Below are positions 373 through 30,231 of a DNA stretch of 64,000 nt, piece by piece (within the stretch, counting starts at the first letter, position 1; each line of letters begins with the position of its first letter). The translations under genes and the position numbers were made by a program. The stretch covers positions 28,148,001 to 28,212,000 of the forward strand of contig OZ024762.1 in NCBI GenBank assembly GCA_964016885.1. The letters run 5' to 3'. Below the pieces are notes generated by a model. The model did no database searches and was not told the DNA's origin. It was given only the letters and a program-made list of their open reading frames with translations. The DNA is from Eledone cirrhosa (Eukaryota).

Positions 373-800
373 GTTAGTAACTCTATATTTCTCTCCCTTT
401 TCTTGCCTCCTATGCATTAATGAAGCTTTGCTAATCTTTTAAATACAGAATAAGTAATATTCATTTCTTCACCAAACTTTAATAAAATTATAGTTGTAGA
501 CATAACAGAAGTCCGACGAGCTTTTGATTCCAGAGTCGGGCCAGATTGATACAGATTGAGCATTGAGCTGCTCAATCGCGAAATGTGCGTCAAACTTCAA
601 TCAATGAAATGAAGACAATACTTTGTCTTTTTGATTATTAGTATTATATTCTTAGTACTACACCATTATATCCACTGGAAACTACGCATAGAGTGCTCAC
701 TCTGGTGAACCTACAGTAACTGGACGTTACAATCACTAAGTATATATTTATATATATATAAAATAACAGGAGGCATGTACTGGTGTAAACACTTGAAAGG

Positions 801-867
801 TTTATTATACTATGATCATTTCAATGACCGGGTTCAGTATGAATCCAGTGACATCATCAGGTAATTC
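801..867 (-). ncRNA. Minimal type I hammerhead ribozyme motif (left arm of foldback 1)
   Basis: Minus strand: CUGAUGA - imperfect stem II hairpin - GAAA U GAUC A UA, with a palindromic stem III loop; stem I only ~3 bp. Confidence 0.55.
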
Positions 868-2830
868 AAAATATAACGAAGGAATATAGCAGATAAAAAT
901 CCATGGTGTTTGAATCAGAGACAGGAAGGCAGCTGGCAATTTAGCAGCTTCTAGCTCGGTTGGCCACCCTCGAGTGTTGATTATTAGGTCTACATATTAC
1001 CATCTGGTGTGGGGGCACAAGCCTTTAATGTACTACTACCATCCCGTCAGATGGAAACGTCAGCGCTGAGGTCACGCGTCAATCAGGCTGGAAATATATG
1101 CAAATATGCTCGAAATTACCACAAAATATATTTTTTCAAGAACAAACATCATCCACAAAGACAGACATAGAGATTAAAAAGGGAGAGAGTGTGTGTGAAT
1201 GAAAGAGATAGAAAGTGACCGAGAGAGAGTGGGGGAGAATGAAAGAGCGAGTGTGTGGGAGAATGAAAAAAAGGGAGAGTGTGGGTAAGTGATATAGAGA
1301 GAAGGTGACAATTAACATAAGGAGGCTTTTATGAAGAAGTTTAAGTGTAATATATATAGTCACGATAAATTGTCAGGGTAGTATATATAGTAAAATTATG
1401 CCCGTGCTAGCGGTCAATAAACAGCGACTGCGGACCCCGCGCCAGCCACCCCCTCCCACGTGCCAGCTGTTTTGAGTAATATCGTCTAGCGAAAGAAATG
1501 GAAATTAGTTTTTCCGAGCACTCCACGAATGTAACTGTCTTAGGCATCGGGTGTTCTAGTGCAGAGCCCCCCAGCGCCGACCGGCCATCGTATATACCAA
1601 GCGGTTGCTATTATATCACACAGGGTGGGGATTTAGTTAAATGCTAGTAGGAAGAGGCATGTTACAGCTAAAGGTTATGACTAAGCCTAGAATATAAAGG
1701 TACTATTTGGTGGTCAATGCTGGCAGTGTGGCGAGTCCCAAGCCCGGCCTGGCACTGGGTCGAAGCAGTGGTTCCGAGTAATTTTGTTTGTCGGGTGTGA
1801 ATAAATATTAATCGTCTGGTAACACGCGATGATCCGACGGATGTGGCGGATTTCCGGACTGCGCGCTGGGCACTCGGGCGTTTTAGCCTTCCTTGAGTGC
1901 TTGGAAATATAAATTTCCCCTTCTTTTGATAAACGAAATTACTCGGAACCACTGCTTCGACCCAGTGCCAGGCCGGGCTTGGGACTCGCCACACTGCCAG
2001 CATTGACCACCAAATAGTACCTTTATATTCTAGGCTTAGTCATAACCTTTAGCTGTAACATGCCTCTTCCTACTAGCATTTAACTAAATCCCCACCCTGT
2101 GTGATATAATAGCAACCGCTTGGTATATACGATGGCCGGTCGGCGCTGGGGGGCTCTGCACTAGAACAGCCGACGCCTAAGACAGTTACATTCGGGGAGT
2201 GCTCGGAAAAACTAATTTCCATTTCTTTCGCGAGACGATATTACTCAAAACAGCTGGCACGTGGGAGGGGGTGGCTGGCGCGGGGTCCGCAGTCGCTGTT
2301 TATTGACCGCTAGCACGGGCATAATTTTACTATATATACTACCCTGACAATTTATCGTGACTATATATATTACACTTAAACTTCTTCATAAAAGCCTCCT
2401 TATGTTAATTGTCACCTTCTCTCTATATCACTTACCCACACTCTCTCTGTCAACCTCTCTCTTTTTTTTTATTCTCCCACACTCTCTCTCTCTTTCATTC
2501 ACACACACACACTCTCTCCCTTTTTAATCTCTGTCTGTCTTTGTGGATGATGTTTGTTCTTGAAAAAATATATTTTGTGGTAATTTCGAGCATATTTGCA
2601 TATATTTCCAGCCTGATTGACACGTGACCTCAGCGCTGACATTTCCATCTGACGGGATGGTAGTAGTACATTAAAGGCTTGTGCCCCACACCAGATGGTA
2701 ATATGTAGACCTAATAATCAACACTTGAGGGTGGCCAACCGAGCTAGAAGCTGCTAAATTGCCAGCCGCCCTCCAATCTCTGATTCAAACACCATGGATT
2801 TTTATCTGTTATATTCCTTCGTTATATTTT

Positions 2831-2897
2831 GAATTACCTGATGATGTCACTGGATTCATACTGAACCCGGTCATTGAAAGGATCATAGTATAATAAA
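2831..2897 (+). ncRNA. Hammerhead motif, right arm of foldback 1 (stem III mutated)
   Basis: CTGATGA 2838-2844, GAAA 2876-2879, then GGATCA rather than TGATCA; AATAAA follows. Confidence 0.5.
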
Positions 2898-3060
2898 CCT
2901 TTCAAGGATTTACACCAGTACATGCCTCCTGTTATTTTATATACAACTACACAAACGAAGACGGGTGAGTTGCATTACGTTGAGTGCTTTCCATAATATT
3001 ACATCGAGGTTGACCACACAGAATGACCAGTTCTATCCAGTGGTGAACCAACAAACCCAA

Positions 3061-3094
<34 letters not shown>

Positions 3095-3097
<3 letters not shown>

Positions 3098-3775
3098 TGT
3101 ATACCGATTAATGTTCAGAGCCATCCTCAGCATTCTCGTGTAGCACCCATCCACCATCTGAGTGAGTTTCTTGGTCAGTGTCCAAGTCTGAGACCCATAC
3201 AGCAGCACAGACTCCACTACAGTAATGAAGAGATGGATTTTCAGGTCTTTACAAAGGTCCGACTTCCACACCGATCTCAAGCTGTGGCACGCCGCCCAGG
3301 CTTTGCTCTTCCTCTCAACCTCATCATCTATCGTATTCCCAATCTTTGCTCCCAAATACAGGAAGTCCTCAACCAATTCTAGCGGCTTCCCGCCTACATT
3401 AGTGATCCCCTCTGGCTTCTCAACATTCTCTACCAGATATTTTGTTTTAGTCTCATTCATTCTCAGCCCCACACTGAGGATGAAAAACTCAGAGCTATAT
3501 GGGAGCCTCCCAAAAGTCAGCTCAAAAGTGACACAGAGGAGACTGAGGTTAGCTTGACATGCTCACCAACATCCAGAGTTGACATTGCACTCAGTGCTCC
3601 TGTGGGAGCCCCTACATGGCCACACTGGAAGAGGAAGACCAAGGTTAACGTATGTTGATGCCCTAAGGACAGACACTGGTCTGTTGGAGACGCAGGACAT
3701 GGCAGCGATAATGAGGGACAGAGACCGCTGGAGAGAACTCATTCATGGATCTTGGGAATTTTACCCGCCCTAGAA
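3095..3775. mobile_element. RTE-type LINE fragment with 5' inversion (3095-3470 minus, 3471-3775 plus)
   Basis: Minus part: FLYLG...VLLYGSQTWTLT...RMLRMALNI. Plus part continues RMKNSELYG...RRLRLA...GRPRLTYVD. Confidence 0.85.
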
Positions 3776-3878
3776 ATATATATATATACACACACACACA
3801 TACATACATAGGTATGTATATAGTAAATATATAAATATGTATTATAAATACATATGTATATATATATAGAAATAGATT

Positions 3879-3929
<51 letters not shown>

Positions 3930-4344
3930 AATAAACATATGGAACAATCACAGGGAATAATTTGTAAAGTATGAAAGGACTACTGTGATTTACTGATTAA
4001 TTGGTGAAATATATTTTATATTTAAAGAAATATATACAAAGGAGATTAATCATTTTAAAAGGTATCTATATTTGAAGTTCTAGTTAAACTTTAATAGGTT
4101 ACTTACTTAGCTATGTGTGCTTTCATACTTTACAAATTATTCCCTGTGATTGTTCCATATGTTTATTTTATATATATATATCAATCTATTTCTAGTTGAT
4201 ATAAAATACTCGGATCTATTCATTGGAATATTTGAGCTTATTCTGCAGTGGATATGGCGCATGTCTCTCAGACATGACAACCCTTTAGCATTCGCATTCA
4301 TTTTCAAACGTCATGCTTATCTGTTCGCATTATTTTCAGTTAAT

Positions 4345-4530
4345 CGTGGATTGGCAGTATCGGTAGAGGGTCAGACACCATGCTTTCCAGCATAGTTACA
4401 TCCCTTAACGATCTGAGTTCAAATCCCGCCGAGGTTAACTTTGCCTTTCATCCTTCGGGGTCGATAAAATAAAGTACCAGTAATGTACTGGGTAATTGCT
4501 GGCCTTGTGCCAAAAAGTAGAAACAATTAT
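4345..4530 (+). mobile_element. tRNA-derived SINE (dominant family in window)
   Basis: A box TGGCAGTATCGG, B box GTTCAAATCC, conserved body TTTGCCTTTCATCCTT...GATAAAATAAAGTACCAGT, (ATT)n tail; many similar copies. Confidence 0.8.
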
Positions 4531-4689
4531 TTTCAGTTAATCGTACTCAAGAGGGTTATCAATTTTATTTGTTTGTAATTTTCTTAATTTTCTATGTGCA
4601 GATTTGAAATTTTGTCAGATGTTTAAATATCAATAATTTACAATTATATAATTTTACCTGATTTTTTTTGGTCACATTTGACTTTTATG

Positions 4690-5498
4690 GGCAGGTGAAA
4701 TTAATTAATAGGGGCATTTGAAGTATCAACCAGGTGAAAATACTGGTTTAATTTTAAATACGTTGTTTTCAGCATAATACTTGATATATAAGAATCACTA
4801 AACCTTATATCAGTGTTCCAGTAATTCCACAGTCTTGGAAATTGTTTTAAACTGAATATAATATTTACGGTAAAAAAATGCTTGCATTTCTGCAGCATCT
4901 ATCGGTCGCCATAACAGATCGGACTTTCCTCGATTTGAAATGTTGTTGTTGGGCATATCGATTAATCTCTTCTGCCATAACTTTAAAGAAAGTTTGTGGT
5001 AAAAACAAAAAGAAATAATCCAGTGCTTTAGCATCGGGAGCTAACGTGTGTTGTGGACTGGTATTTTGAATAAAATCGGGAACATATATTAGTGTGGTAT
5101 TTTTTAACCATATTGCTGAAATATTTTCAATGGCACCCTGGAGTCTCCTTCGTTTTCACTTTCAAAACAATCACCGTCGGACGAAATTTCAGAAATATAA
5201 ACATCAGATTCATTTGAAGATAAATCATTAATATTATTGTTTGTTACTTGTTTATTCTGAATGTCGTTTCAAAGTTAAAAAAACACTTGTTGTATTAAGT
5301 TGTTTCACTATATTAAGTGTTAATTTTCGCGGTAAAGGCCTAATCTCGCAGCATCTCGAATTGACGAAACTTTGATGATGGTTTGTTTATTTTTAGAACG
5401 ATTTTTTAGTGTGGGTGTTTTCGGGCGATTTCGGGCGGTTTGAACAAATGAAGGGGAAATAATTTCGGGCGATTTCGGGCGGTTTCAACACTAAAGGG
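4690..5498 (-). mobile_element. piggyBac transposon relic (5' end and transposase fragment)
   Basis: Terminus TTAA-CCCTTTAG on minus strand; subterminal TTTCGGGCGATTTCGGGCGG repeats; peptides WRPIDAAEMQAFF and PRLWNYWNTD...LNQYFHLVD typical of piggyBac transposase. Confidence 0.75.
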
Positions 5499-5755
5499 TT
5501 AATGTAATTTTTGGACATATCTGTATATATATATATCTATATCTGTGTGTGTGTGTATATATGTACGTATACAATAAAATAACAATGCAGGGAGCACTGG
5601 TGCATTTTATGATGGCACTGAATTCCCCTCTCAAACCGTATATTGTCCCCATTTGTTACATAAATCTGTTACATAAATCCCACCACAGTCACCATTAAAA
5701 AAGAAAGTAGGAAGTCCTTTGCTATATATTTTCTATTCCCAAATATCTTCAACAG

Positions 5756-5928
5756 GGCCTATTTGCTGAGAACAAGGAGAAGTTGATTAATGCTGCCTTG
5801 ACAGGTTTACTTGAACGTGAGGGTGACCAAAATAACATCACATCTGAAGCTTTAGAGGCTCAGTTCCAAGCATTGCGTCGACTGGTCGCTTCCAAAGCTG
5901 GTTTTCAAGCCTTCACTAGCCTCATCAA
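5756..5928 (+). CDS. DNAJC13: DNAJC13 exon 2: [19 protein letters not shown]...[18 protein letters not shown]
   Basis: aacag acceptor, gtaaga donor; conserved [10 protein letters not shown]. Confidence 0.95.
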
Positions 5929-5957
5929 GTAAGATTATTATTATTATTATTATTATA

Positions 5958-6782
5958 GGGGGATGGATTTGAAGTATCGGTAGAGCGTCAGACACCATGC
6001 TTCATGGCATAGTTACGACCCTTTATTATCTGAGTTCAAATCCCGCCGAGGTTAAATTTGCCTTTCATCCTTACAGGGTCGATAAAATAAAGCACCAGTA
6101 ACATACTGGGGTCGATTTAATCGACTTTCCCCTCCCCCAAATTACTGGTCTTGTGCCTATACTAGAAATCATTATTATTATAGTGGGGTGGATTGACAGT
6201 ATCGGTAGTGTTGGACACCATACTTCATGGTGTAGTTATGTCCCTTTATGTTCTGAGTTCAAATCTTGCCGATGTCAGCTTTGCCTTTCATCTTTACGAG
6301 GTCGATAAAATAAGTACCAGTAATGAACTGGGGTCGATTTAATGGACTTTCCCTTTCCCCCAAAATTGTTGACCATGTGCCTAAATCAGAAATCATTTGG
6401 CAGTAATGGTAGAGGGTTGGACGCCATGCTTTGACGCATAGTTACGGCCCTTTATGGTCTGAGTTCAAATCCCGCCGAGGTTGACTTTGCCTTTCATCCT
6501 TACGGGGGCGATAAAATAAAGTAGCAGTAATGCACTGAGTAATTGCTGGCCTTGTTCCAAACGTAGAAACAATTATTTAAGGGCAGTGAATTGGAAGAAT
6601 TGGTAGAGCATTGAACAACATGCTTTATGGAATATTGTTACGGCCATTTACATTGTGTTGAAATCCTGCCAAGGTTAGCTTAAAGGGTCGATAAAATAAA
6701 GTACCTGTAATGCACTTGGGTAAATTTAATCTACTTTCCCCCTCCCTTACAAATTGCTGACCTTGTGCCTAAAGTAGAAATA
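5958..6782 (+). mobile_element. Tandem cluster of four tRNA-derived SINEs
   Basis: Four head-to-tail copies similar to 4345-4530. Confidence 0.8.
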
Positions 6783-6825
6783 ATTAAGTGTGGTTGGCAC
6801 AGTGAATATAGTAGCTGTATCTTTC

Positions 6826-7365
6826 ACACACATTCACTAACATGCACACACACACACACACACTCATACACTCCCACTCACATCCCCACTTACATATGCA
6901 CTTTCACTCACATACACACTCCCACTCATACACTTTCACACACACTCACTCATACACACACACTCGTTCATACACATACAGGCACGCATACACTCATACT
7001 CACTCTTACACTGACATGCTTATACTCACACTCAGATACATACTCAGTCTCGCATACATACACACACAAAGCCACGTACACACACATTCACATGCACACA
7101 CACACATTCACATGCACACACTCACATTCACACAGCCACACACTCACACACACACAGCCACACACTCACACACACACACTCAGACACACACACTCAGACA
7201 CACACACTCAGACACACACACTCAGACACACACACTCAGACACACACACTCAGACACACACACTCAGACACACACACACAGACACACTCAGACACACTCA
7301 GACACACTCAGACACACACATACACACTCAGACACACACACTGACACACTCAGACACACACACAG
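6826..7365. repeat. (CA)-rich compound microsatellite including CACACACACTCAGA units
   Basis: Visible periodicity. Confidence 0.9.
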
Positions 7366-7420
7366 TCAGATATTTTATGCTATATGTTCAATTGACGAAA
7401 TTTTGTCTCTTTTCTTCCAG

Positions 7421-7520
7421 AATGCGAGAAAGAGTTGGAATAAAGGTTGTGAAAGCACTGAAACGTAACGATGATGCAGTCACCCATGCAGCTGTTGATA
7501 TGCTGTGTGCACTGATGCAG
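7421..7520 (+). CDS. DNAJC13: DNAJC13 exon 3: [33 protein letters not shown]
   Basis: ttccag / gtaaac; conserved [11 protein letters not shown]. Confidence 0.95.
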
Positions 7521-8045
7521 GTAAACACCACAACCACCCCACAGCCCATCCCCCACCATCACACCCACCCATATATTTGTGTGTGTGTATATATATGTAT
7601 ATATAAAGTAATGTAGTTAATAAGGCAGTGTGTATATATGTGTGGGTGTATGTGTGTATCATCATCATCGTTTAACGTCTATCTTCCATGCTAGCATGGG
7701 TTAAGACGGGAATTGTCCCACTTAAGGCAAGATTAGTCGGGAGACCGTATCTCGCTCGTATATACCCCCCCCCCAGCCCACACTGTAAAGTGGACATGTA
7801 AAAGACACGACAAAAAGCACCCAGCACACACTGTCAATGTGGTTGGCGTTAGGAACGGCATCTAGCCGTAGAAAACTAGCCAGAAACAGTTCTATACAAG
7901 CGAGACACAGGCACTCAACCTAACAAACCCGTCTAACCCATGCTAGTCTGAAAGACGGACGTTTGTAGATGATACACACACATATATATAAAAGTGTGTA
8001 TGTATATATAACTCATACCCTTCCTGTCACCACCATTATTATAAT

Positions 8046-8975
8046 CTCTCTCACTCACTCACTCTCACTCGCTCACACTCTCTCACTCGCTCGCTCACTC
8101 TCACTTACTCACACTCGCTTACTCTCACTCACTCACACTCACTCACTCACTCTCTCATTCACACTCACTCTTGCTCACTCTCACTTGCTCACTCTCATTC
8201 ACTCACTCTCATTCACTCCCTCTCACTCACTCACTCATGCACTCACTCACTCACTCACTCACTCACTCACTCACTCACTCACTCACTCACTCACTCACTC
8301 ACTCACTCACTCACTCACTCACTCACTCACTCACTCACTCACTCACTCACTCACTCACTCACTCACTCACTCACTCACTCACTCACTCACTCACTCGCTC
8401 ACTCACTTGCTCACTCACTCGCTCACTCACTTGCTCACTCACTCGCTCACTCACTTGCTCACTCACTCGCTCGCTCACTCACTCACTCGCTCACTCACTC
8501 GCTCGCTCGCTCGCTCGCTCGCTCACTCGCTCTCTAGCTGTCTCTCTAACTCTCTCTCTAACTCTATCTCTAACTCTCTCTCTAACTCTCTCTCTAACTC
8601 TAACTCTCTCTCTCTCTCTCTCTCTAACTCTAACTCTCTCTCTCTAACTCTCTCTCTAACTCTAACTCTCTAACTAACTCTCTCTCTCTAACTCTAACTC
8701 TCTAACTAACTCTCTCTCTCTAACTCTCTCTCTCTAACTCTCTCTCTCTAACTCTCTCTCTCTAACTCTAACTCTCTCTCTAACTCTCTCTCTCTCTAAC
8801 TCTAACTCTCTCTCTCTAACTCTAACTCTCTCTCTAACTCTAACTCTCTCTCTCTCTAACTCTAACTCTCTCTCTCTCTAACTCTAACTCTCTCTCTCTC
8901 TAACTCTCTCTCTCTCTCTCTAACTCTAACTCTCTCTCTCTAACTCTAACTCTCTCTCTCTCTAACTCTCTCTTT
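8046..8975. repeat. (CTCA)n grading into (CT)n/CTCTAA microsatellite, ending at the exon 4 acceptor
   Basis: Visible periodicity. Confidence 0.95.
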
Positions 8976-8987
8976 CACTAATTGCAG

Positions 8988-9095
8988 CCAATGCATGATG
9001 ACTATGACATCCGACAGGAACAGATGAATAAATTTTCCCTGATGTCTTCTCGAAAATTCCTTGAAAATCTTCTGGAGATGTTCAATTATCATGTG
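8988..9095 (+). CDS. DNAJC13: DNAJC13 exon 4: [36 protein letters not shown]
   Basis: ttgcag / gtaagt; conserved PMHDDYD.RQEQ.NK. Confidence 0.95.
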
Positions 9096-9124
9096 GTAAG
9101 TTCTTACAGAAATATCCATATATA

Positions 9125-9931
9125 CACACTTACATAGATACTTACATAGACACTTACATAGATACTTACATAGACACTTACATAGACACTTACATAGACA
9201 CTTACATAGACACTTACATAGACACTTACATAGACACTTACATAGACACTTACACAGACACTTACACAGACACTTCCACAGACACTTCCACAGACACTTC
9301 CACAGACACTTCCACAGACACTTACACAGACACTTACACAGACACTTACACAGACACTTACACAGACACTTACACAGACACTTACACAGACACTTACACA
9401 GACACTTACACAGACACTTACACAGACACTTACACAGACACTTACACAGACACTTACACAGACACTTACACAGACACTTACACAGACACTTACACAGACA
9501 CTTCCACAGACACTTCCACAGACACTTCCACAGACACTTACACAGACACTTACACAGACACTTACACAGACACTTACACAGACACTTACACAGACACTTA
9601 CACAGACACTTACACAGACACTTACACAGACACTTACACAGACACTTACACAGACACTTACAGACACTTACACAGACACTTACACAGACACTTACACAGA
9701 CACTTACACAGACACTTACACAGACACTTACACAGACACTTACACAGACACTTACACAGACACTTACACAGACACTTACACAGACACTTCCACAGACACT
9801 TCCACAGACACTTCCACAGACACTTCCACAGACACTTCCACAGACACTTACACAGACACTTACACAGACACTTACACAGACACTTACACAGACACTTACA
9901 CAGACACTTACATAGACACTTACATAGACAC
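9125..9931. repeat. 12-bp minisatellite CACAGACACTTA
   Basis: Tandem units with CATAG and TTCC variants. Confidence 0.95.
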
Positions 9932-10197
9932 TGAAGTTCAGCTATCATGTAAGTTATCTTACGGAAATATCCATATATATACACTTACATACATACTTAT
10001 AGACACTTACATACACTTACATAGACTTACATCTGGGGATGTTCAACTATCATGTGGTAAGTTATTTTACAGAAATATCCATATATGCATACTTTCATAC
10101 ATACTTACATACACTTACGTAGACACTTACACTTACATCTGAAGATGTTGAACTATCATGTAAGTTATCTTACAGAAATATCCCTATATAGACATAT

Positions 10198-10412
10198 ACA
10201 GCTGCATAAAAAGGTGCAGAGCACTATAAGCCGATGGAAGCCACGGAGTGGGGAGACACAAGAAGACCTGGGATGAGGTGATAAAGGCCGACCTTACTCA
10301 ATTGCACCTCTCAAGGGCAATGACACATGACCGTGACCTCTGGCGTCACACAGTAATACAGAAGACCCGACCCTCCACAGGAACAAGCCGAAGCTGAAAC
10401 ATAGACAATATG
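10198..10412 (+). mobile_element. RTE LINE 3' fragment
   Basis: Reverse complement of 62440-62645 (KTWDEVIKADLTQLHLS). Confidence 0.75.
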
Positions 10413-10480
10413 TATTAAGTATTTCTGTAGGAAAGGTAAAGGAAAGAAGAGTGCTCTATGTATAGTACAGAGCTATTTAT

Positions 10481-10722
10481 TTATGTAATAAACAACACAA
10501 TCTAATTATTCCATTACCCAAGGTTTCACGAAGTTAGACGATTCTTACAGAAACATCTGATATCGCTCATCAGATGAAATATCTTTATTATGGATCTAAG
10601 ATATGAAATTAAAATCCTTTTTAATATCTTATATCCATAATAAAGATCTTTCATCTGTTAGAATCATCTAACTTCGCAAAACTTTTGGGTGATGGAATAA
10701 TTATATTGTGTTAATTACATAA
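10481..10722. mobile_element. Palindromic MITE-like hairpin (~240 bp)
   Basis: AATTATTCCATTACCCAA / TTGGGTGATGGAATAATT and inner CTTTATTATGGAT / ATCCATAATAAAG are inverted. Confidence 0.7.
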
Positions 10723-10908
10723 TTGTTTCTACTTTAGGCACAAGGCCAGCAATTACCCAGTGCATTACTGGTACTTTATTTTATCGACCCCGTAAGGATG
10801 AAAGGCAAAGTCAACCTCGGCGGGATTTGAACTCAGATCGTAAAGGGACGTAACTATGCTGGAAAGCATGGCGTCCGACCCTCTACCGATACTGCCAATC
10901 CACCGCCC
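10722..10908 (-). mobile_element. tRNA-derived SINE
   Basis: Reverse complement of the 4345 family. Confidence 0.8.
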
Positions 10909-13810: not shown

Positions 13811-14679
13811 GTGAGTTAGTAAAACTACTACAATGTATATTCTGTAAAATAAAAGGGGAGGCCAGAGTAGAGAGGACCCTTTTGCTGTGCCACTGTCTGG
13901 CAACCTCTCTAGTGTTGATCTACACAATAAATGCGCCCACTACACTCTGTAAATTGGTTGGTGATAGGAAGGGCATCCAGCCATAGAAAACTTGCCAAAT
14001 AAAGGGTTAGAAGGACCCTTCATTTGTCACTAATATATTTCTTCATTGTACCGTGTTGTTTGCTTTGTTTTTTCCATTCACTGTTTGCTAGCGTGGAAGA
14101 ACGGGTGTAAAACGGTGAGACACAAAGCAGGCTTTGTTTACAAACAGCTTGCGAATTTGAAAATTAAGTACAAATATATGCTGTATTTGACTGAATAGAA
14201 TTAGTCTGTTAGTTGGGATATTGATGTCATGGGACACGAACCCACATTTTTGGTTTGCCGGACCAATATGTTACCATTACACCAACACGCCACTAATGCT
14301 TCCTGCCATTCAATTAAAAGCTATATGTAAAAAATTATAAAACTAAATTGTTTAGAACACCAACTACAAGTGAAGTCATTCTTTTCCTTTTTTATATGTA
14401 TATATAAATATCCCACCATCCTCCCATTCCGTCCACTGTGTCAATGACACAACAGTCCACACTGTAAGGTGGTCATGTAGGAGACACGGTAAAAAGGCTC
14501 CCAGTCCACATTGTAAATGCGGTTGGTGTTAGGAAGGGCATCCAGCTGTAAAAAACCTGCCAGAGACACTTTCGTACGGGTGAGACATAGTCTCCCAACC
14601 ATTCTTGCATCAAATAGAACAAAACCGTCTAACTCATGCTAGCGTGGGAGATGGACGTTAAACGATGATGATATATATA

Positions 14680-18375: not shown

Positions 18376-18394
18376 GTAAGTTATTTCTTAAATC

Positions 18395-19250: not shown

Positions 19251-19346
19251 CCCAGTGGCTTGCTGTCCTACCTTGACTCAACTGATGAAGTACCAACTAT
19301 AGAGGAAGACAAGCTACATGTTAGAGACAATGTAAAACTGGCCCAG
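19251..19346 (+). CDS. DNAJC13: DNAJC13 exon 9: PSGLLSYLDSTDEVPTIEEDKLHVRDNVKLAQ
   Basis: ttccag / gtatgg; conserved GLL.YL.S and HVRDNVK. Confidence 0.93.
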
Positions 19347-19878: not shown

Positions 19879-19929
<51 letters not shown>

Positions 19930-20028
19930 TCATATGTATGTATATCATCATCATTCTATTTTCGTTTTTTTGTTTTGTTATATTTTTTAAAACATTATTT
20001 CTGTCTATTTTCTTTGTTGCTTATTCAG

Positions 20029-20142
20029 GATCGACAAAACAGACAAAAGAAAAATCCACAACTTCAATTAATAGAGAAAAAAATTGATCATTTTCTTCAA
20101 CATTGGCGAGCACAGATGGGGTTAGAATCCAGTAAAAAACAG
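20029..20142 (+). CDS. DNAJC13: DNAJC13 exon 10: DRQNRQKKNPQLQLIEKKIDHFLQHWRAQMGLESSKKQ
   Basis: attcag / gtatgt; HWR..MG motif; phase 0-0 fits. Confidence 0.88.
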
Positions 20143-20443
20143 GTATGTATCATGTCAGCATATTGGGTTGTGTTTGATAATTGTATATATATGATCAAAT
20201 ATGCGTGGCTGAGTGGTTAGAGAATTGGATTCGCAATCGTGAGGTTGTGATTTTGATTCCCAAACCGGGCAATGCATTATTTCCTTGAGCAAAACACTTT
20301 ATTTCACGTTGTTCCTTCTACCTGTATTTGCGAAAGACTGTCTATATATATATATATACGCACACACACATATATGTATACACACACCCACCAGTCGCCA
20401 GCACTTTCCTCTCACTATTATCTTCTCTCATTATTTCTGTTAG

Positions 20444-20569
20444 AACGATGTAAAACCTATTGTACTACGGAAGCGACGACAACGAATAAAGAGTGAGGCC
20501 AACTGGCTTTTGTTTTACCACCATTTCAACCACGACCATGCTAGACCCAATTTAATATGGAACTACAAG
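20444..20569 (+). CDS. DNAJC13: DNAJC13 exon 11: [42 protein letters not shown] (IWN repeat)
   Basis: tgttag / gtatgt; conserved LRKRRQRIK and LIWN. Confidence 0.95.
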
Positions 20570-21161
20570 GTATGTCCTATGTCCCCTTTGTTTGCTTTTA
20601 TACTTTATATTATTATTATTACTAGCAGAAAAACCACCCTGCTAGCATGTGTAGTGTGCATATTGATATTATATGCAAATATATATGCAAATATATATAC
20701 GTCAAATAAAATCGAAATTGAGAAAATGCACAGGAAATTGAAGAAAGATTGTTACACTCTCTCTGTAATCAGTAAAGTAATCTTAGACGATATATATAAA
20801 CTGCATTATGGTGAAATGTTATGGAAACGAAAAAGGAGAAAATTAGCGCTGGAAATATCAACCTTATATAATGATGCAAGTATATGAACGTTTATATAAG
20901 TGATGTGATATAGTGTACAGCTAAGTGATAAGATACAACGGATGCTAACCGAAGTATTGACATTTGAACATTTTTAAAGAAGTAAATCTTAAAATAAGCA
21001 ATATATAAAAATATTTGTTTAATCAAGAGCTACGGTTTAGTAGATAAATTATGTAATATTTATGATTTATTCAAAGTAATCCAACTTATTTTAATAACAT
21101 GTTCAGAAAAAATATCCCTGACAGTCTCACAGTCCACCAATCATTATATTTAAGATTATTA

Positions 21162-21760
21162 AGGGTGGTGGATTGGCAGAATCGGTAGAGTGTCGGACAA
21201 CATGCTTAGTGGCATAGTCATGGCCCTTTATGTTCTGAGTTCAAATCCTGCTGAGGTTAACTTTGCCTTTCACCCTTACTGGGTTGATAACATAAAGTAC
21301 CAGTAATGCACTGAGGTCGATTTAATTGACTTTCCCCTTCGCTCAAAATTGCTGGCTTTGTGCCTAAGTCAGAAACCATCATTACTGCTTTGCAGCAGAG
21401 AGTTATGGCCCTTTATGTTCTGAGTTAAAATCCCGCCGGGGTTAGCTTTGCCTTTCATCCTTACGAGGTTGATAAAATAAAGTACCAGTAATGCACTGGG
21501 GTCGATTTAATTGACTTTTCCTTTCCCCAAAACTGCTGGCCTTGTGCCTAAATCTGAAACCATTGTTATAATTAGGGTGATGGATTGGCAGAATCGGTAG
21601 AGCGTTGGACAACATGCTTAGCGGCATAGTTATAGCCCTTTACATTCTGAGTTCAAATCCTGCTGTGGTCGGCGTTGCCTTTCATCCTTACGAGGTTGAG
21701 AAAATAAAGTACCAGTAATGCACTGGGGCCGATTTAATCAACTTTCCCCTCTCTCCCCTA
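21162..21760 (+). mobile_element. Cluster of three tRNA-derived SINEs
   Basis: Same family as 4345. Confidence 0.8.
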
Positions 21761-21936
21761 AAAGTTCAGCAACTGAAAGATCAAACTGGTGCTAAACAAC
21801 AACAACAACAAAAAGCTGGTTGAGGATACACCTGTAACTGAACCTCAACAACAACACATTTCTTGTATTTCTTATAGGCACCGCTGAATTATGAAATCCC
21901 CCCCTTTTTTTTTATTCTTCTCTCGCCTGCCTTTAG

Positions 21937-22081
21937 ACACGGGAAGAACTACGAGAAGCTTTGGAGAATGAAATGCGGTCATTCAATGCTGACCGGGAGT
22001 TGGGGTCTAGCCACGTTATAGCATGGAACCATCAAGAATTTGAAGTACCTTTTATCTGCCTAAGTGATGAAATTAAAATAG
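21937..22081 (+). CDS. DNAJC13: DNAJC13 exon 12: [23 protein letters not shown]...WNHQEFEV...EIKIG
   Basis: ctttag / gtaagt; conserved peptide. Confidence 0.95.
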
Positions 22082-22244
22082 GTAAGTTTTGCTTTCTATA
22101 CCATTCTTTTGTATTAAACATTTTATTAAACATTCAATCCAGCTCAAATGTTAACCATTTAAAGTATTCACCCATCTGAAGAATTAGCCCTGTTATATAA
22201 TGCCACAGCTTACGTGTTCCCAATTCAACTGTTAGCCCTGTTAA

Positions 22245-22466
22245 CCCTTTTAGCATTTAAACCGGCCAAATCTGGCCAGAATTCTCTCACCTCTTTCTGT
22301 TCAAACTGGCCATAATCGGCTGCTCATACTTATGTTCAGGTATTGTTCTCAAAATAGATATCAAAATCTTATAGATTTCGATATAATGTGAGATAATTAT
22401 GAGAGATAAAGCCATCACCTTGGAAATACAGTAGTATATATAGAGAGTAATGTAAATGCTAAAGGG
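22245..22466. mobile_element. piggyBac-type MITE
   Basis: TTAA-CCCTTTTAGCATTTA ... TAAATGCTAAAGGG-TTAA. Confidence 0.8.
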
Positions 22467-22769
22467 TTAATGGGAATCCGGTAGAGATTACATTTAGCAG
22501 GAATACAGCATGACGGGGTTAAATCTATTTCCATTCAAGATCACTAACTCTTTGGTTATTTCAACTTTAGAAGGAATAGAATAGAGAATGGGTCACATCT
22601 GAGTAAGTTTGGCCTCTTATGAGGCTACATCTCATATACAATAGTGTCTAACCCATGCTAGCGTGGAAGAACGGACGTAAAACGATGATGAGAGTAATGT
22701 AGATACTATGTGAAATATTATGAGATAATAATTGTGAGGTAAAGCCTTTACCATGAAAATACAATATAT

Positions 22770-23007
22770 CTAAGGCAGGTAAAATTCCCAAGATCCATGG
22801 ACAAGTTCTCTCCAGTGGTCTCTGTCCTTCATCATCGCTGCCATGTCCTGTGTCTCCCACCAGAGACCAGTGTCTGTCCTTAGGACATCAATATATGTCA
22901 ACCTCAGTTTCCCTCTTCTAGTGTGTCCATGTAGGGGGTCCCACTGGAGCACTGAGTGCAGTGTCAACTCTGAATGTCAGTGAGCATGTCCATCTAACCT
23001 CAGTCTC
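22770..23007 (-). mobile_element. RTE LINE 3' fragment (same family as 3471-3775)
   Basis: TLHSVLQWDPLHGHT...WRELVHGSWEFY. Confidence 0.8.
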
Positions 23008-24151
23008 TATATATACAATAGTGTGTATATATATATATTAGTAAAAAGGAAAAGAAAATGCTGACAAATTTTTCCCAGTGAAAAATAGTTTAATTAGGAA
23101 TAAGTATAAATTAGTAATAAGTATTGGTTAGTATTTAGTTTTAAGTTTTTACCGGTTGCACATTTCTAATGCTTTTCAAAAATAATTTTGAGATAGAGCG
23201 CTCGTGATGTTTGCTCTAATCTGATCAGTTTTGGAAATTCTACCTGTTTTATGTGAAAAAGTGGCTCCAGAGGTATTAAGATTTGGTTGGTTGTTGAATG
23301 TCACGTGAATAAGTACTATAAATTCCGCGCCAATTCGTGTTGCAAAAATTCTTGTAGTCAAAACAATTTTGATTGGTCGGTAGAGGTCATGTGAATGTTA
23401 AAAATTGATTTTAGCGCGAACTGGTTTGGCGCCAAATGTAGGTTTGTCGAAGAGTGTCCTTTTTCGCTTGATTGAGTTGCACTCATGTTGAGAAGTCACT
23501 GAAAAACATGTCAATTAAGACAAATGTGTGTGTGTGTGTGTGTGTGTGTAGTAAAGAGGTTCATTGTTGTGATAATGGTCAGTAGGGATGTGTGTGTGAG
23601 TTGCAGTCATGTTGAAAGGTCAACAGTTCAGGTGTCTATTAACATGTTGAAACATATTTTTCAGCTCTTGTCTTATACGGAGTGTGTGTGTGTGTGTGTG
23701 GATGGACCAGTATTTTTGTGATACTGATAAAAATGGTGTACATTATTCGATATTTTCAGTCATTTGCAAAAACGATTCTCTCAAAAGAACATCAAAAACA
23801 TCAATAATAAGAGGTGAAATGATGTATAGTATTGTCATAACACCAAGGTGTGTGTGAGTGTCCAGATTGTACGTACTGCAAGGGGAATCCATTAGGCCCT
23901 GCCGTATGGGATACTTGTGTACAAATATGTATGTGCCCATCAATGTGCAATACATGTGCGTATGTGTGTGTGTGTGTGTCGGCACGTTTATATCTATAAA
24001 CATCAAAAGGTATGCAAATTTGTGTATATTTGTGTTGCACCATAGAACGTGTGTTTACGTATGTCATTGTTTTTATATGTGGATAGAAATGTATGTAGGA
24101 TGTATGCTGATGAAGGTATGTATGTTGACGTGTGTATGTTGTGGGTTCGTC

Positions 24152-24865
24152 TTAGGGAGAAGTGTTTAGACGGGGTCCGTATTTGTTAATAAAGTGAGAT
24201 TCCTTGCTGATGCGCTGGGTGTGGGTGGCATTATCTTTAAATTTGTAGAGGGGAAAGATTCTAAAGTTGGGATGATTTTGGGCGGCACAGGTATCAATGT
24301 GTTCACTCAGTGGTATTTTAATTTGGGATCTATGGACAGTCATGCGTTGGCGGAGGCTGTTTTTAGTCTGGCCTATGTATTGTTCTTGACAACCTGAGCA
24401 AGTTAATACATATATTAGATTTTCTGATGTGCATGTGAAATTGTGTTTTACTATAAAACGTTGTCCTTTGAAATAGAATTCCGAACCCTCTATTAGGTTG
24501 ATGCATATGCCACAGTTGGGTCTATCGCATTTTTTTACTGTGGGTTTTGTTGTTGTGGTTGGCAGTACTTTGGCATGTGTTAGGATGTTTTTCATTGACT
24601 TAGATTGTCTTTTGCACTTTATGATATCGTGTGTTCGAAGGATTTGGTTCATTCTATGGTCCTTTTTTAACACAGGGATGTTCTGGAGGATGGTGTCAAA
24701 GGCCTCATTGTTGAGGGGGTTGTGTGTGGAGATGTATGGAAGAGCTTTTAGTTTTGGTTGATTTACTTTAGGGTGTCTAAGGTCCTGGGTACTGAGTTTT
24801 AGGGCATGTTGGATTCCATTGTCAATTAGTAATGCAGGGTAGACCCTGCTTATGAGTGTGTCCTT
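24152..24865 (-). mobile_element. Penelope-like element fragment, GIY-YIG endonuclease; 3' UTR probably extends to ~23040
   Basis: KCDRPNCGIC zinc motif, NLIYVLTCSGCQEQYIGQT, RMTVH, ESHFI...LN. Confidence 0.88.
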
Positions 24866-25093
24866 ATATATATGTATATATGTGTGTGTCCTTATATATA
24901 TGTATATATACAGAGAGAGAGAGTGTAATGTAAATTCTAAAGGGTTAAACATTCCATCCAGCTCAGCTGTTAGCCTAGTAATACAATGTTCCTAACCCAA
25001 TTGTTAGCCTAGCTGCTGTCCTAGCTCAGACACAGGCATGTTATTTTATCCCACTTTATAGAGTTAACCCTATATTTCTTTACCCGACAACAG

Positions 25094-25163
25094 GTGATTA
25101 TTATCTTCGTTTACTGCTGGAGGAGGGCGAAGAATCCACTGAAACATTTGGTATAAAGCGCTC
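25094..25163 (+). CDS. DNAJC13: DNAJC13 exon 13: DYYLRLLLEEGEESTETFGIKRS
   Basis: caacag / gtaagt; conserved GDYYLRLLLEE. Confidence 0.95.
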
Positions 25164-25174
25164 GTAAGTAACAC

Positions 25175-25211
<37 letters not shown>

Positions 25212-25552
25212 TTACATATTTACATCGTCTAAACCCATGCTAGCTTGGAAGATAGATGTTAAATGATGAAAGATATGTAAACAAATATATACATATGTAT
25301 ATGCAGCATCGTTTAATGTCCATTTTCCACACTAGCATGGGTTGGACGTGTTGTCCCATTAGAGGCAAGTTGGGTCAGGTGACTGTGTCCTGCTCATATA
25401 GAACCATTTCTGGCGAAGTTTCTATGGCTGGATGCTCTTCCTAACGCCAACCACATTTACAATGTGGGCTGGGTCCTTTTTGATGTGACTCCTACATGAC
25501 CACTTGATAGTGAATGTAACACTTGCTTGTATATATATATGTGTACATTGTA

Positions 25553-25870
25553 CATCATCATCATCATTTTACGTCCACTTTTCCCTGCTTGCAAGGGTGG
25601 CACAGGTCCTATTCAGCACAGCATCTCTCCACTTGTCATGCTCCTTCGTCATCTCCATCATGAGCTTCAGTGATCTGAGGTCTGCTCTCACCACCTCCGC
25701 CAATGTGTTTCGTGGTCTTCCTCTACTGCGTTTTCCTTCTACTGGGATTTCTTGGCACTTCTTCACCCAGCGGTCATCCTCCATGCGCATCACATGTCCA
25801 CACCATCGCATTCTTCTCTCCTGAACACAACTTATCCATCTTATACACAGTTTCTCTCTCAACTCATCTA
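25553..25870 (-). mobile_element. RTE LINE 3' fragment
   Basis: RRMRWCGHVMRMEDD...GRPRNT; (GAT)n tail. Confidence 0.85.
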
Positions 25871-25941
25871 TGCTTGTTCGTACATATATAAACTAATATA
25901 TATATGTATTTATATGTATGTATATATATATATTATATATA

Positions 25942-26312
25942 TATGACACACGACCGTGACCTTTGGTATCACACAGTAATACAGAGTACCCGACCTCCCA
26001 TGGGTACAAGCTGAAGCATATAGACAATATGCCCCCACACCCTCCCACTGCAAAGTGGTCGTGGAGGTGCCACGGCAAAAAAGCACCCAGCCCGCACTGT
26101 AAATTGGACGTGTAGGCGCCACGGAAAAAAAGCACCCAGCACTCACTCTAAATGAGGTTGGTGTTAGGAAGGGCATCCAGCTGTAGAAATCAAGCCAGAA
26201 TAAGTTCCTGTATGAGCAAGGCATGGTCAGCCGACCAGACACTGCCCACAACAGGACAACCCGTCTAACCCATGCTAGCATGGAAGAACGGACGTAAAAT
26301 GGTGATGATGAT
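25942..26312 (+). mobile_element. RTE LINE 3' UTR fragment
   Basis: Near-identical reverse complement of ~62160-62522. Confidence 0.8.
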
Positions 26313-26608
26313 TATATATATATATATATTATATATATATATTATATATATATATATTATATATATATATATTATATATATATATTATATATATATATAT
26401 ATTATATATATGTAGATAAATCTACCAAGAGTTTACGGTAGTGTCCAATCCGTATGAAGAACTCAATGTAATCCGGATATCATGGAAAGAAGAGATGCAA
26501 TGAAAAATCACTTTCGGTGAAAGATAAACGGAAAACAGAGTCAAGATAAAATATTAAAAAAATAATGAATAAAACAATGAAGCAGTTCCTTATATTAAAC
26601 AAAAAAAG

Positions 26609-26763
26609 TTCATTATTTAACGATCGTTTCTAGGATATATATGTGTTAGAATTGGCATGCATATTCAACAGATCTATGTACAAAATTATACAAAATTATA
26701 CAAACTATCAAAATTAAATATACATACCAAACACATATATATGCCGTCTTCAGAAATAATGAA
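26609..26763 (-). ncRNA. Type I hammerhead ribozyme motif with long stem II (left arm of foldback 2)
   Basis: Mirror of 27678-27832. Confidence 0.72.
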
Positions 26764-27677
26764 ATATATTTATTGATAATAACAACAATTCAAAATTAGA
26801 GGTCTGTTTGGGAACAGAGTTCAAATTGACCAATGAAAATACAAAAAGTTTATACAGTTAGGTGTGTGTATATATTCATATAAGTAACTTCGTTCACAGA
26901 TATGCATAAAGATATATGTTCACATGCATACGCTTGCCAAAAAGATGTATGTAAATACAAAAATTCAAGGCTAATGTCTCTGTATGTTTATAATCTACAG
27001 ATAAAATACGTACCCACATATATAAATATAAAATAAATATATACACACATTCATATACTCACACATATACGTACATTCACACACACACGCGTATACGCAA
27101 ACACATACACACAACCACGAACATACATACACACATACACCCCCACACACATATATGTGTGTATATACTATTATCATAAGCATATGGATATTAATGCGCG
27201 CACATAAACACTGCCACACACATTTAGATCCAGATACAGAAAGTAGGTGGGGGGGGGGAGAGGTCAGTATTCACCGGTGTCAGCAGACTGCCTATTTATA
27301 AATGTATCTATAAACTTAGAAATAAAAAGAAAAGAAAAAGAAAAAAGAAATATATCAAGAAAATATATATATATATGTGTGAGTATATGAATGTGTGTAT
27401 ATATTTATTTTATATTTATATATGTGGGTACGTATTTTATCTGTAGATTATAAACATACAGAGACATTAGCCTTGAATTTTTGTATTTACATACATCTTT
27501 TTGGCAAGCGTATGCATGTGAACATATATCTTTATGCATATCTGTGAACGAAGTTACTTATATGAATATATACACACACCTAACTGTATAAACTTTTTGT
27601 ATTTTCATTGGTCAATTTGAACTCTGTTCCCAAACAGACCTCTAATTTTGAATTGTTGTTATTATCAATAAATATAT

Positions 27678-27832
27678 TTCATTATTTCTGAAGACGGCAT
27701 ATATATGTGTTTGGTATGTATATTTAATTTTGATAGTTTGTATAATTTTGTATAATTTTGTACATAGATCTGTTGAATATGCATGCCAATTCTAACACAT
27801 ATATATCCTAGAAACGATCGTTAAATAATGAA
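27678..27832 (+). ncRNA. Type I hammerhead ribozyme motif with long stem II (right arm of foldback 2)
   Basis: 10-bp stem I TTCATTATTT/AAATAATGAA; CTGAAGA 27688-27694; ~115-nt stem II hairpin; GAAAC-GATC-GTT (palindromic stem III, GUU triplet). Confidence 0.72.
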
Positions 27833-28368
27833 CTTTTTTTGTTTAATATAAGGAACTGCTTCATTGTTTTATTCATTATTTTTTTAATATTTTATATTAT
27901 ATATATATATATTATATATATTATATATTATATATATATATATTATATATATTATATATATATGTGTATAAATGTAGGTATATGTATATTTAAAGTTTGA
28001 GTGACAAGCCCCCCAAGCCTCATTCAGTTACCATGTGGGCAGGAACTCATCAAATCGGACCAACGAAACAATGTTTCTATTGGTCTTTCCATTGCTGATA
28101 CCATCTACTGGTCGCAACTCCTGGCAAAAATAGTAACATGAAATAAAGTGTCTTGCTCAAGGACATAACACATCACCTGGTCCAGGAATCGAACTCCCAA
28201 TCTCATGTTTGTGAATCCTATTCCCTAACAACTATGCCACATGCCTTCAGTCATCATCATCATCATTTTACGTCTGCTTTTCCCTGCTTGCAAGGGTGGG
28301 ACGGTGCAGTGTATATATATATATTATTCAAAATGTTAATAAATGAAAAATATTCTCATAATCAAAAT

Positions 28369-28437
28369 ATATATTTTATTATACATATTTCAAAGGTACA
28401 ATGGTCTTTAAGTACGTTTTCATCAGACAAAATATAT
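28369..28437 (-). ncRNA. Minimal type I hammerhead ribozyme motif (left arm of foldback 3)
   Basis: 11-bp stem I AUAUAUUUUGU/AUAAAAUAUAU; CUGAUGA; stem II AAA-C-GUAC/GUAC-C-UUU; GAAA-U-AUGU-A-UA. Confidence 0.75.
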
Positions 28438-29809
28438 GATTTGATATGTGACATTCCACTACGGTTTTGATTATTCAATTCCAGTATTGGCAGTGATTTA
28501 TTTCATCAAATCTCAACGTTTTTATACCACAAATAATATGATAAACTTAAAGAAGAAAAGAAAGTAGAGCAAGTTAGAAATATAGGAGGGGGATGCAAAG
28601 AAGAGGAAAAGGCAAGAAATAAACAAATAAATAAATGAATGAATAAATGAATAAATAAATAAATAAATGGATGAATGAATTAAAAAAATAATATAAAAGA
28701 AAAGAGGAATAAAAACAAAAGAGAGGGAAGATGTGGGGAGAGTAAAGAGAAAACAGGGGAATAAAGAAAAACGAAGAAAAAGAAAATATGAAATAGAGGG
28801 GAATAAAAAACCGTTGTATTCAAATGCTAGATAAAATAAGAAATCAAAAATCTATTCACAAATATGAAATATGAAATTTAATAATACATAGACTATCATT
28901 AAAAGGAAACTATATATCAGAACAATTAAATACAGAAGTAAATATAACCATTCATTAAATAAAATGAAATACAATTATAGAGAGTAAATATAACCACAGT
29001 TGGATTCTTAGAAATAAATGAAAATTAAAGAATAAAGCTTTCATAAAGCGAATTTCTAAATTAATTTGGATAATAAATGAACAAAATATATTATATGTAT
29101 TGATGGGGATATATGCATGGTATTATATTTTAATATATATTTAATAATTATTTAAATACGCTTTAAAGATTAATTCTTTTAAAGTTGTAGTAAAATATTA
29201 ATAGAATATCTTACCTTAAAATTAGAAATTATAATAATCTATAATGAGCTAAATTTAATTATATAAATTTGTAATTAACTTAAATATTTGATTGCTATAG
29301 AAAGTAATCTATACCTAATAATCTAGATATAATATAAAAGTATAATTAGCTAAAGCATAATCCAATACAAGCGATATTCATTGATATTTGTGAATAGATT
29401 TTTGATTTCTTATTTTATCTAGCATTTGAATACGTTTTTTTATTCCCCTCTATTTCATATTTTCTTTTTCTTCGTTTTTCTTTATTCCCCTTTGTTTTCT
29501 CTTTACTCTCCCCACATCTTCCCTCTCTTTTGTTTTTATTCCTCTTTTCTTTTATATATATTTTTTTCTTTTTATTCATTCATCCATTTATTTATTTATT
29601 TATTCATTCATTTATTTATTTATTTGTTTATTTCTTGCCTTTTCCTCTTCTTTGCATCCCCCTCCTATATTTCTAACTTGCTCTACTTTCTTTTCTTTAA
29701 GTTTATAATATTATTTGTGGTATAAAACCGTTGAGATTTGATGAAATAAATCACTGCCAATACTGGAATTGAATAATCAAAACCGTAGTGGAATGTCACA
29801 TATCAAATC

Positions 29810-29875
29810 ATATATTTTGTCTGATGAAAACGTACTTAAAGACCATTGTACCTTTGAAATATGTATAAAATATAT
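29810..29875 (+). ncRNA. Hammerhead motif, right arm of foldback 3 (3-nt deletion at cleavage site/stem I)
   Basis: CTGATGA 29821-29827, GAAA 29856-29859; one ATA missing relative to the left arm. Confidence 0.6.
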
Positions 29876-30231
29876 ATTTTGATTATAAGAATATTTTTCA
29901 TTTTTTAACATTTTGAATAATATTAAACACTTCAGGAAAATCCACTGTTGAGTGCTTCTAATCTATTGTCATATTGTATTCGTTGAGTAATCAACGAACC
30001 ATATTAATCTTTGGTTATATATATATTATAAAAAAGAAGAGATAATATTACGTATACTCTTCTCTGTTTATTACATCATCCTGTTATGCACATTTCAAAG
30101 ACATGAAAGTGGTTGTATAATAATTCTTTGACAAGTATAATAATTCTTCAGACAAGTATTGAGGTGTAATATTGTTTGTTTTAGATATGCTCGCCATTAT
30201 ATTTATATATATACTTATATATATATACATA

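Follow-up and report, generated by a model that had tools for sequence, protein, structure and literature searches.

Three long foldback elements, E1, E2, and E3, each carrying hammerhead-like motifs in its arms, were found in a 64,000-nt stretch of the Eledone cirrhosa genome (assembly GCA_964016885.1, contig OZ024762.1, positions 28,148,001 to 28,212,000; hereafter the window). The locus raises the question of whether such a foldback is itself a replicating, ribozyme-bearing unit, as the original prediction proposed, or a product of the insertion of other elements. To judge from sequence, the arms are the 3' ends (pseudo-long terminal repeats, pLTRs) of Penelope-like retrotransposons (PLEs), paired head-to-head. 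Each foldback very probably consists of two 5'-truncated 3' ends of Hydra-type PLEs, copied as two complementary DNAs (cDNAs) and placed head-to-head in (TA)n, likely in one insertion event and likely without being copied onward.

The originally described plan of inverted arms, a spacer, an unpaired tail on one side only, and (TA)n runs on both outer sides was confirmed by alignment of the arms, which were 94.6% (E1), 99.8% (E2), and 94.8% (E3) identical (Table 1). No mutual similarity among E1, E2, and E3 was detected by blastn (E<1e-5). The view that these are inverted pLTR pieces of PLEs, without an open reading frame (ORF), also held, as the arms mapped to pLTR 3' ends. The copy at 41949, thought to be a recurrence of one foldback, does belong to the E2 family, but its breakpoints differ from those of the foldback at 26412, and both of its arms are cut inside stem II, so that the CUGANGA half is absent and no ribozyme core is intact.

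Table 1. Features of the window, numbered from its first nucleotide (UTR, untranslated region)
Feature	Position	Strand	Description
E1 foldback	757-3065		Inverted pair of pLTR pieces; arms aligned over 755-1792 / 1928-2943
E1 tailless arm	757-1792	-	5'-truncated copy of the ORF-less E1 family; terminus is the family's fixed inner 3' end
E1 tailed copy	1793-3065	+	Spacer 1793-1927 (ordinary E1 body); arm 1928-2943; tail 2944-3065
E2 foldback	26412-27895		Arms aligned over 26546-27069 / 27372-27898
E2 tailed copy	26412-27364	-	Tail 26412-26545; arm 26546-27069; spacer 27070-27364 (3' UTR); 3' end of a young ORF-bearing Hydra-type element
E2 tailless arm	27372-27898	+	
E3 foldback	28321-30017		Arms aligned over 28321-28868 / 29381-29923
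E3 tailless arm	28321-28868	-	
E3 tailed copy	28869-30017	+	Spacer 28869-29380 (3' UTR); arm 29381-29923; tail 29924-30017
Second E2-family foldback	41948-42435		Tailed copy 42237-41948 (-); tailless arm 42239-42435 (+)
E1 left hammerhead motif	811-860	-	C3 at 860; cleavage predicted after 811; proximal stem I 3 bp; passes strict scan
E1 right hammerhead motif	2838-2887	+	One change breaks helix III palindrome; fails strict scan
E2 left hammerhead motif	26619-26753	-	Stem I 10 bp; stem II 116 nt; helix III palindromic; passes strict scan
E2 right hammerhead motif	27688-27822	+	Intact; passes strict scan
E3 left hammerhead motif	28380-28426	-	Stem I 11 bp; passes strict scan
E3 right hammerhead motif	29821-29867	+	3-nt deletion at cleavage site; fails strict scan
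Fourth-family hammerhead motif	30151-30085	-	Passes strict scan
A of TCA, E1 wall	2720	+	Predicted transcription start, 118 nt before C3; E1-family 5' ends lie just 3' of the motif
A of TCA, E2 wall	26760	-	Predicted transcription start, 7 nt before C3
A of TCACT, E3 wall	29753	+	Predicted transcription start, 68 nt before C3
DNAJC13/RME-8-like gene exons	7380-7523, 33450-33620, 49597-49872, 57609-57725, 58425-58547	+	RME-8_N and DnaJ matches

E2 was 97-98% identical to the 3' ends of L091 and L093 (genomic loci are given L numbers), copies of a young element of ~6.3 kb with its ORF on the hammerhead strand; the span from pLTR to pLTR was ~6.3-6.9 kb. The ORF was uninterrupted (810-811 amino acids) in two of ten long loci and broken or cut in the others. 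Its protein contains a reverse transcriptase (RT; YRDD) and a YIG-type GIY-YIG nuclease region, with RWR, DKT, CxCx5C, CxxC, and CxH motifs; the first three were seen in L269, L271, L272, and L273, CRLC and CNH lie near the C-terminus, and the first linker Cys is changed in L093. The protein had 118 homologs at E<=1e-20, and no match was returned from a local copy of Pfam for this ORF and two related fragments. In all 25 loci found with the ORF start, a pLTR with its tail lay directly upstream, the tail continuing into the 5' UTR and the ORF; therefore, the next unit begins with the tail. With a single ORF for a PLE-type RT and GIY-YIG, partial tandem pLTRs, an inverted 5'-truncated copy, a one-sided tail, and a sense type I hammerhead, the E2 parent is by its sequence features an endonuclease-bearing (EN+) PLE.

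Within EN+ PLEs, the motifs and a by-eye comparison would place the E2 parent in the Hydra type. As described in PMC8557442, Hydra elements have RWK-like and DKT motifs, a CxCx5C linker, CxxC, CxH, and a C-terminal nuclease, and an Octopus bimaculoides member (Hydra-1_Obim) is listed there with (TA)n targets and a hammerhead. The E2 parent resembles them in its single ORF with RT and C-terminal GIY-YIG, in RW[K/R], DKT, CxCx5C, CxxC, and CxH near the end, in its (TA)n targets (nearly all 3' ends of the E1, E2, and E3 families run into TA runs), and in its sense hammerhead near the 3' end, partial tandems, inverted 5'-truncated copy, and tail at one end. Unlike the Hydra elements described in that source, which are generally <3 kb and have tails of 30-40 nt that include the ORF start, the E2 parent is larger and has a long, repeat-rich 3' UTR, the tails here are 95-145 nt and end 50-150 nt before the ATG, and stem II of E2 is 116 nt.

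Upstream of the E3 3' region, L109 and L107 contained ORF fragments, and in L110 the E3 tail continued into an ORF start. Arms mapping simply to the 3' ends of coding PLEs had been named beforehand as the mark of ordinary inverted insertions, and this is what was found for E2 and E3, whereas E1 mapped to a non-coding parent. The E1 tail led into the same ORF-less body in all 25 loci found with post-tail sequence, with no sense match to a Hydra profile; this profile of 60 proteins gave no match in E1 units, while controls scored 1e-43 to 1e-144. The E1 unit is 2066 nt, L179 is a whole pLTR-body-pLTR copy between TA runs, and L280/L281 form a tandem dimer; the copies are mostly dispersed and 5'-truncated. 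E1 shared no DNA similarity with L091, L109, L110, L107, or L088, and short motifs common to E1 and E3 were found in the tail and just past it. By these patterns, E1 is a non-autonomous family that moves as a linear 2.07-kb unit with direct pLTRs. The proposed non-autonomous class thus survives as the ORF-less E1 family, but the foldback is not its replicating unit, since the junctions vary. A Hydra ORF beside an E1 arm in L101 and L099 was rejected as the E1 parent; the L101 ORF belongs to another family in the same TA run.

Animal retrozymes have been derived from PLE pLTRs (bioRxiv 10.64898/2026.07.22.740005). As described in that preprint, PMC7229834, and PMC8557442, animal non-LTR retrozymes and Chlamydomonas MRC1 resemble E1 in lacking an ORF, in having a single type I hammerhead in each unit, and in occurring as direct repeats and dimers; E1, like them, likely depends on a PLE enzyme. 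Non-LTR retrozymes are defined by short tandem units (under 1 kb) and by abundant RNA circles. E1 does not have such short units; its 2.07-kb unit exceeds the consensus lengths of 51-972 bp given for retrozymes (bioRxiv 10.64898/2026.07.22.740005), and it differs further in its mostly dispersed, 5'-truncated copies, its two-ended tail system, and its inverted 5' copies.

Every tail of E1, E2, and E3 contained a TTGAG(T/C)RCT-like motif (also in L101 and L110), and a GCTCC motif lay just beyond each tail end; the supplement of PMC8557442 shows similar letters for Hydra elements from coral and octopus. The two motifs are candidate RT-initiation signals.

The 3.0-Gb assembly was searched for copies, which gave 997-3454 first-look candidates per family, the best 40 being scored per search. 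Each family showed two fixed 3' ends, with and without the 95-145 nt tail, both followed by TA runs, and a variably cut 5' side; the tailless end was fixed to within 1-3 nt per family. An adjacent inverted arm was present in 49 of 100 tail-anchored copies (17/40, 13/30, and 19/30). The foldback census comprised 65 rows, in which L036 and L158 are duplicates, giving 64 loci with 63 distinct pairs of start positions. A tailed arm was combined with a tailless arm in 61 loci, and two tailed arms in three. The tailed arm reached further 5' in 24 rows and the tailless arm in 23, the two ending within 5 nt of each other in 15, and the arms of L168, L230, and L237 did not overlap at all. Since either arm may reach further 5' and certain pairs have no overlap, it cannot be that one arm was copied by fold-back from the cDNA of the other. 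Queries spanning the E1 and E3 junctions matched end to end at this locus only among the best 40 of 250 and 416 candidates, the others being half matches. In this sample, inversion breakpoints that differ from copy to copy, as the original prediction expected of ordinary insertions, were found in all three families; the breakpoints likely record the RNA start of the element and the joining of two separately primed cDNAs.

In the proposed mechanism, the Hydra protein would nick both strands of (TA)n, and priming at two places within the pLTR RNA, the tail end and an inner site, would start two cDNAs. Each cDNA would stop separately, by random truncation or at the RNA 5' end (TCA motif), and the two far ends would be joined by microhomology. 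The template RNA would be uncut wherever a copy spans the cleavage site, and E1 would borrow the enzyme in trans. The outward direction of the hammerheads simply reflects their position close to the pLTR 3' ends. Such chemistry resembles that reported for PAc, the Poseidon element of Anolis carolinensis, in which two internal RT starts bound the tail, both strands of an AT-rich target are cut and extended in vitro, and uncut RNA is the template (PMC11167929). PAc differs in being an in vitro system from another clade, with a hammerhead that overlaps the start codon, and inverted products are not addressed there.

The 5' ends of the copies piled up at one place in each pLTR. In the tail-anchored samples, a 10-nt interval held 11 of 19 (E2), 10 of 26 (E3), and 5 of 22 (E1) of the 5' ends within 150 nt (corrected binomial p of 7e-11, 1e-7, and 0.02); the intervals were picked after the data were seen, two E2 ends were moved into theirs by the reading of the junction (nine without these two), and three E1 rows, whose alignment was interrupted by a deletion in the window copy, were left out. 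In each of the three unrelated pLTRs, this wall coincides with the A of TCA or follows it closely, at different distances from the ribozyme core (E2, 7 nt; E3, 68 nt; E1, 118 nt). In the 150 nt upstream of the wall, 2 (E2), 1 (E3), and 2 (E1) 5' ends were found, compared with 6, 15, and 15 downstream. Of 12 E2 arms, 6 had G rather than the templated C before the wall A (p of 0.012 for 18% G and of 0.054 for 25%; one arm is ambiguous and one comes from a more distant copy), and one of five E3 arms showed this G. An initiator (Inr)-like TCACT has been noted in rotifer pLTRs (PMC3846280), and an internal promoter is described for the Penelope element of D. virilis (PMC2377424). From these patterns, the wall is likely a capped transcription start, and the short solo pLTRs would come from priming in the upstream pLTR.

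The wall, though not the identity of the elements, might also be explained by an RT stop or a joining hotspot due to RNA structure or AT-rich microhomology. The E2 wall coincides with the 5' edge of stem I, the E3 wall lies at a near-palindrome, and the extra G is mainly an E2 feature. In addition, none of the 17 ORF-linked E2 copies reaching the wall stopped there, compared with 11 of 29 tail-anchored copies (Fisher p 0.004, run with 16 ORF-linked copies), which is unlike a simple capped mRNA and speaks against a simple transcription start. This explanation is nevertheless rather doubtful in view of the TCA common to three unrelated pLTRs despite the differing ribozyme distances, the few ends upstream, the G in place of a templated C, and the rotifer TCACT. 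A splice acceptor as the cause of the wall was rejected, as there is no AG at the wall and the upstream sequence differs among copies. Among the whole-unit E1 loci, 3 of 25 started at the wall and 4 of 25 beyond it. There are hints that the coding copies, which are also somewhat older, come from a multimeric or circular template.

The thousands of short copies could constitute an in vivo record of PLE chemistry, which we put forward as a tentative possibility: every foldback would join two cDNAs from the two fixed pLTR starts, one tailed and one tailless, copies from the upstream pLTR would run off at the capped Inr with a cap-derived G, and ORF copies would derive from a second, circular or multimeric template without a 5' wall. 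No published account of a PLE 5'-end pile-up at a start site, or of the two-cDNA reading, was found in a search whose scope did not include subscription papers and Repbase entries.

The same PLE insertions could also have gained their inverted arm by self-priming or snap-back of a single nucleic acid, either on an antisense template, as in rotifer Penelope, for which self-priming was proposed from palindromic junctions (PMC3846280), or by folding back of the cDNA at hammerhead stem I. The junctions of L142 (E2) and L222 (E3) lie exactly at stem I complementarity, and variants are often common to both arms of one locus. Arms whose 5' end lies at the cleavage site numbered two in E2 (L142 and L165) and one in E3 (L222); stem I microhomology accounts for two of the three, so that they speak neither for nor against an enrichment of 5' ends there. 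Such an origin is unlikely, considering the 5' sequence found in either arm and absent from the other, the pairs without overlap, the fixed tailless end, and untemplated bases at several junctions. The Penelope elements of Adineta vaga and D. virilis, whose inversion is explained by self-priming in PMC3846280 and PMC2377424, resemble the present families in the head-to-head inverted pLTR, the tail on one arm, the Inr-like pLTR motif, and pLTRs sufficient for mobilisation in trans. They belong to another clade, and their target-site duplications are visible, whereas those here are hidden by (TA)n.

That the foldbacks form a non-autonomous class replicating as a whole self-masking hairpin is extremely improbable: the thousands of family candidates, the recurrence of short symmetric foldbacks with centres within ~15 nt of each other, the three E3 loci in one register, and the ORF-less E1 would fit it, but the long E1 and E3 junctions were unique among the best 40 scored, no two of the short E2 foldbacks have the same junction letters, non-foldback copies begin at the same wall (L053, L055, L143, and L166; L220, L223, and L231; L208 and L015), no arm-specific shared variants were found among 14 short foldbacks tested, and the closest E2 relatives (100% over 389 nt) carry other 5' structures. 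The fixed terminal inverted repeats and conserved whole structure of a foldback or miniature inverted-repeat DNA transposon were likewise not seen, as an inverted arm is missing from about half of the copies and the arm lengths and junctions vary.

Several points weigh against the reading of foldbacks as two joined cDNAs of Hydra-type elements. The foldback sample was anchored on the tail, and pairs of two tailless arms are outside its reach; scoring of the best 40 could miss rare shared junctions, and the E2 junction, being of low complexity, was not queried directly. Three short E3 foldbacks (L216, L226, and L238) share one register at a near-palindrome. No intact autonomous partner for E1 or E3 was seen among the loci examined, and the clade assignment was made from motifs and by-eye likeness to proteins of the PMC8557442 supplement. 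Finally, RT start use in PAc is the same on both strands and does not predict a strict one-tail rule (PMC11167929).

The hammerhead motifs were evaluated with a strict descriptor of the type I fold, which requires the core, a helix III/loop that is fully self-complementary, NUH, and a stem I of at least 3 bp. It detected five sites in the window compared with a mean of 0.1 (maximum 2) in 100 block shuffles, whereas an Rfam scan of the window (E<=1) reported no hammerhead, and one of the E1 unit neither a hammerhead nor any other credible family. The claim of an outward-facing hammerhead at each outer arm end stood for E1 left, both ends of E2, and E3 left; the motifs at E1 right and E3 right are damaged, leaving E2 as the only one of the three with two intact motifs. 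On the plus strand, only the E2 motif is intact and those of E1 and E3 are damaged; so few cases cannot be read as selection. The motif is on the ORF strand (sense) in L091 and L109. The fourth-family motif next to E3 belongs to another family, of which a tailless pLTR end adjoins the E3 TA run; its stem II is internally duplicated and does not fold.

Across the genome, the core was intact in 43 of 45 E2, 70 of 78 E3, and 53 of 72 E1 arms, and core positions were slightly better conserved than other positions. In E3 and E1, 90% and 96% of cells, respectively, retained the proposed helix pairs, compared with 30-62% for slid controls (52 and 56 of 70 distinct sequences aligned). Covariation across copies, on which the original prediction had made the ribozyme call depend, was not above shuffles within families (E3 and E1), with two-sided changes in 3 and 1 pairs, and lends the call no support; most copies reflect neutral decay of recent source elements. 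In their conserved core, three helices, NUH, and palindromic helix III, the motifs correspond to a type I hammerhead, for which self-cleavage is predicted. In minimum-energy folds, four of six single motifs were not in the active fold, as expected of dimer-type motifs; PLE hammerheads typically have a palindromic helix III and weak monomer activity, according to PMC4209133. At least 15 further hammerhead families were found in the flanks of the fetched loci, with core, stems, and palindromic helix III kept and letters unrelated, several having a stem II of 58-88 nt. Their sequences suggest that the E. cirrhosa genome harbors many undescribed PLE families. The base of stem II follows a common plan in the E1 and E3 hammerheads, L198, and L232, namely ~3 pairs, a C-C mismatch, and a longer helix.

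Consistent with the expectation that a transcript of either strand carries one ribozyme and its antisense, the duplex with the opposite arm was calculated at -98 to -253 kcal/mol, versus -11 to -47 kcal/mol for the self-fold of the ribozyme. The opposite arm would therefore mask the predicted ribozyme, and the antisense arm would be transcribed first in either direction because of the foldback geometry. This masking would be a by-product.

Turning to the surroundings, E2, E3, and the copy at 41949 are located between exons of the plus-strand DNAJC13/RME-8-like gene. Within ~505-739 (+), a decayed hammerhead-like motif with a changed core (513-591) is followed by a tail-like stretch that extends to the TA run flanking E1 on the left; PLE ends are nested within one another's TA runs. 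At 45627-48760 (+), a degenerate PLE of another type was observed, with RT and nuclease remnants at 45772-47538 whose motifs resemble those of Neptune; it carries a minimal hammerhead near 48640 and, near 45640, a decayed one in inverted orientation. A GIY-YIG-bearing 3' remnant of a further PLE occupies 24152-24991 (-) (Pfam PF01541, E 6.5e-7). Other features are a Pogo/Tigger-like transposase remnant at 34840-35921 (+) (HTH_Tnp_Tc5 and DDE_1), a long tandem array at ~50260-55210 with a short unit open in several frames, and transfer RNA-like matches at 14222-14291 (-) and 38422-38492 (+), above the Rfam cut-off and probably heads of short interspersed repeats.

In summary, little is added here as an element class. 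The published PLE plan already includes the inverted 5'-truncated copy, the tail at one end, (TA)n targets, pLTR hammerheads, and non-autonomous PLEs in Chlamydomonas (PMC8557442), and an octopus Hydra family is on record; what is added, relative to the layout given in that source, is new families. The 116-nt stem II variant and the ORF-less 2.07-kb family are new members missed by standard descriptors and Rfam. The value lies in a data set on how the tandem and inverted structures of PLEs arise: a very young family whose copies are 98-100% identical, with intact ORFs and base-precise junctions, is suited to testing the two-start-site model, the promoter position, and the use of ribozyme-cut RNA as a template. 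In the host gene, the intronic foldbacks would form long double-stranded RNA in the DNAJC13/RME-8-like pre-mRNA. If the short copies are indeed an in vivo record of PLE chemistry, this would replace the antisense self-priming model, and E1 would be a 2-kb non-coding parasite of Hydra that bridges retrozymes and PLEs.

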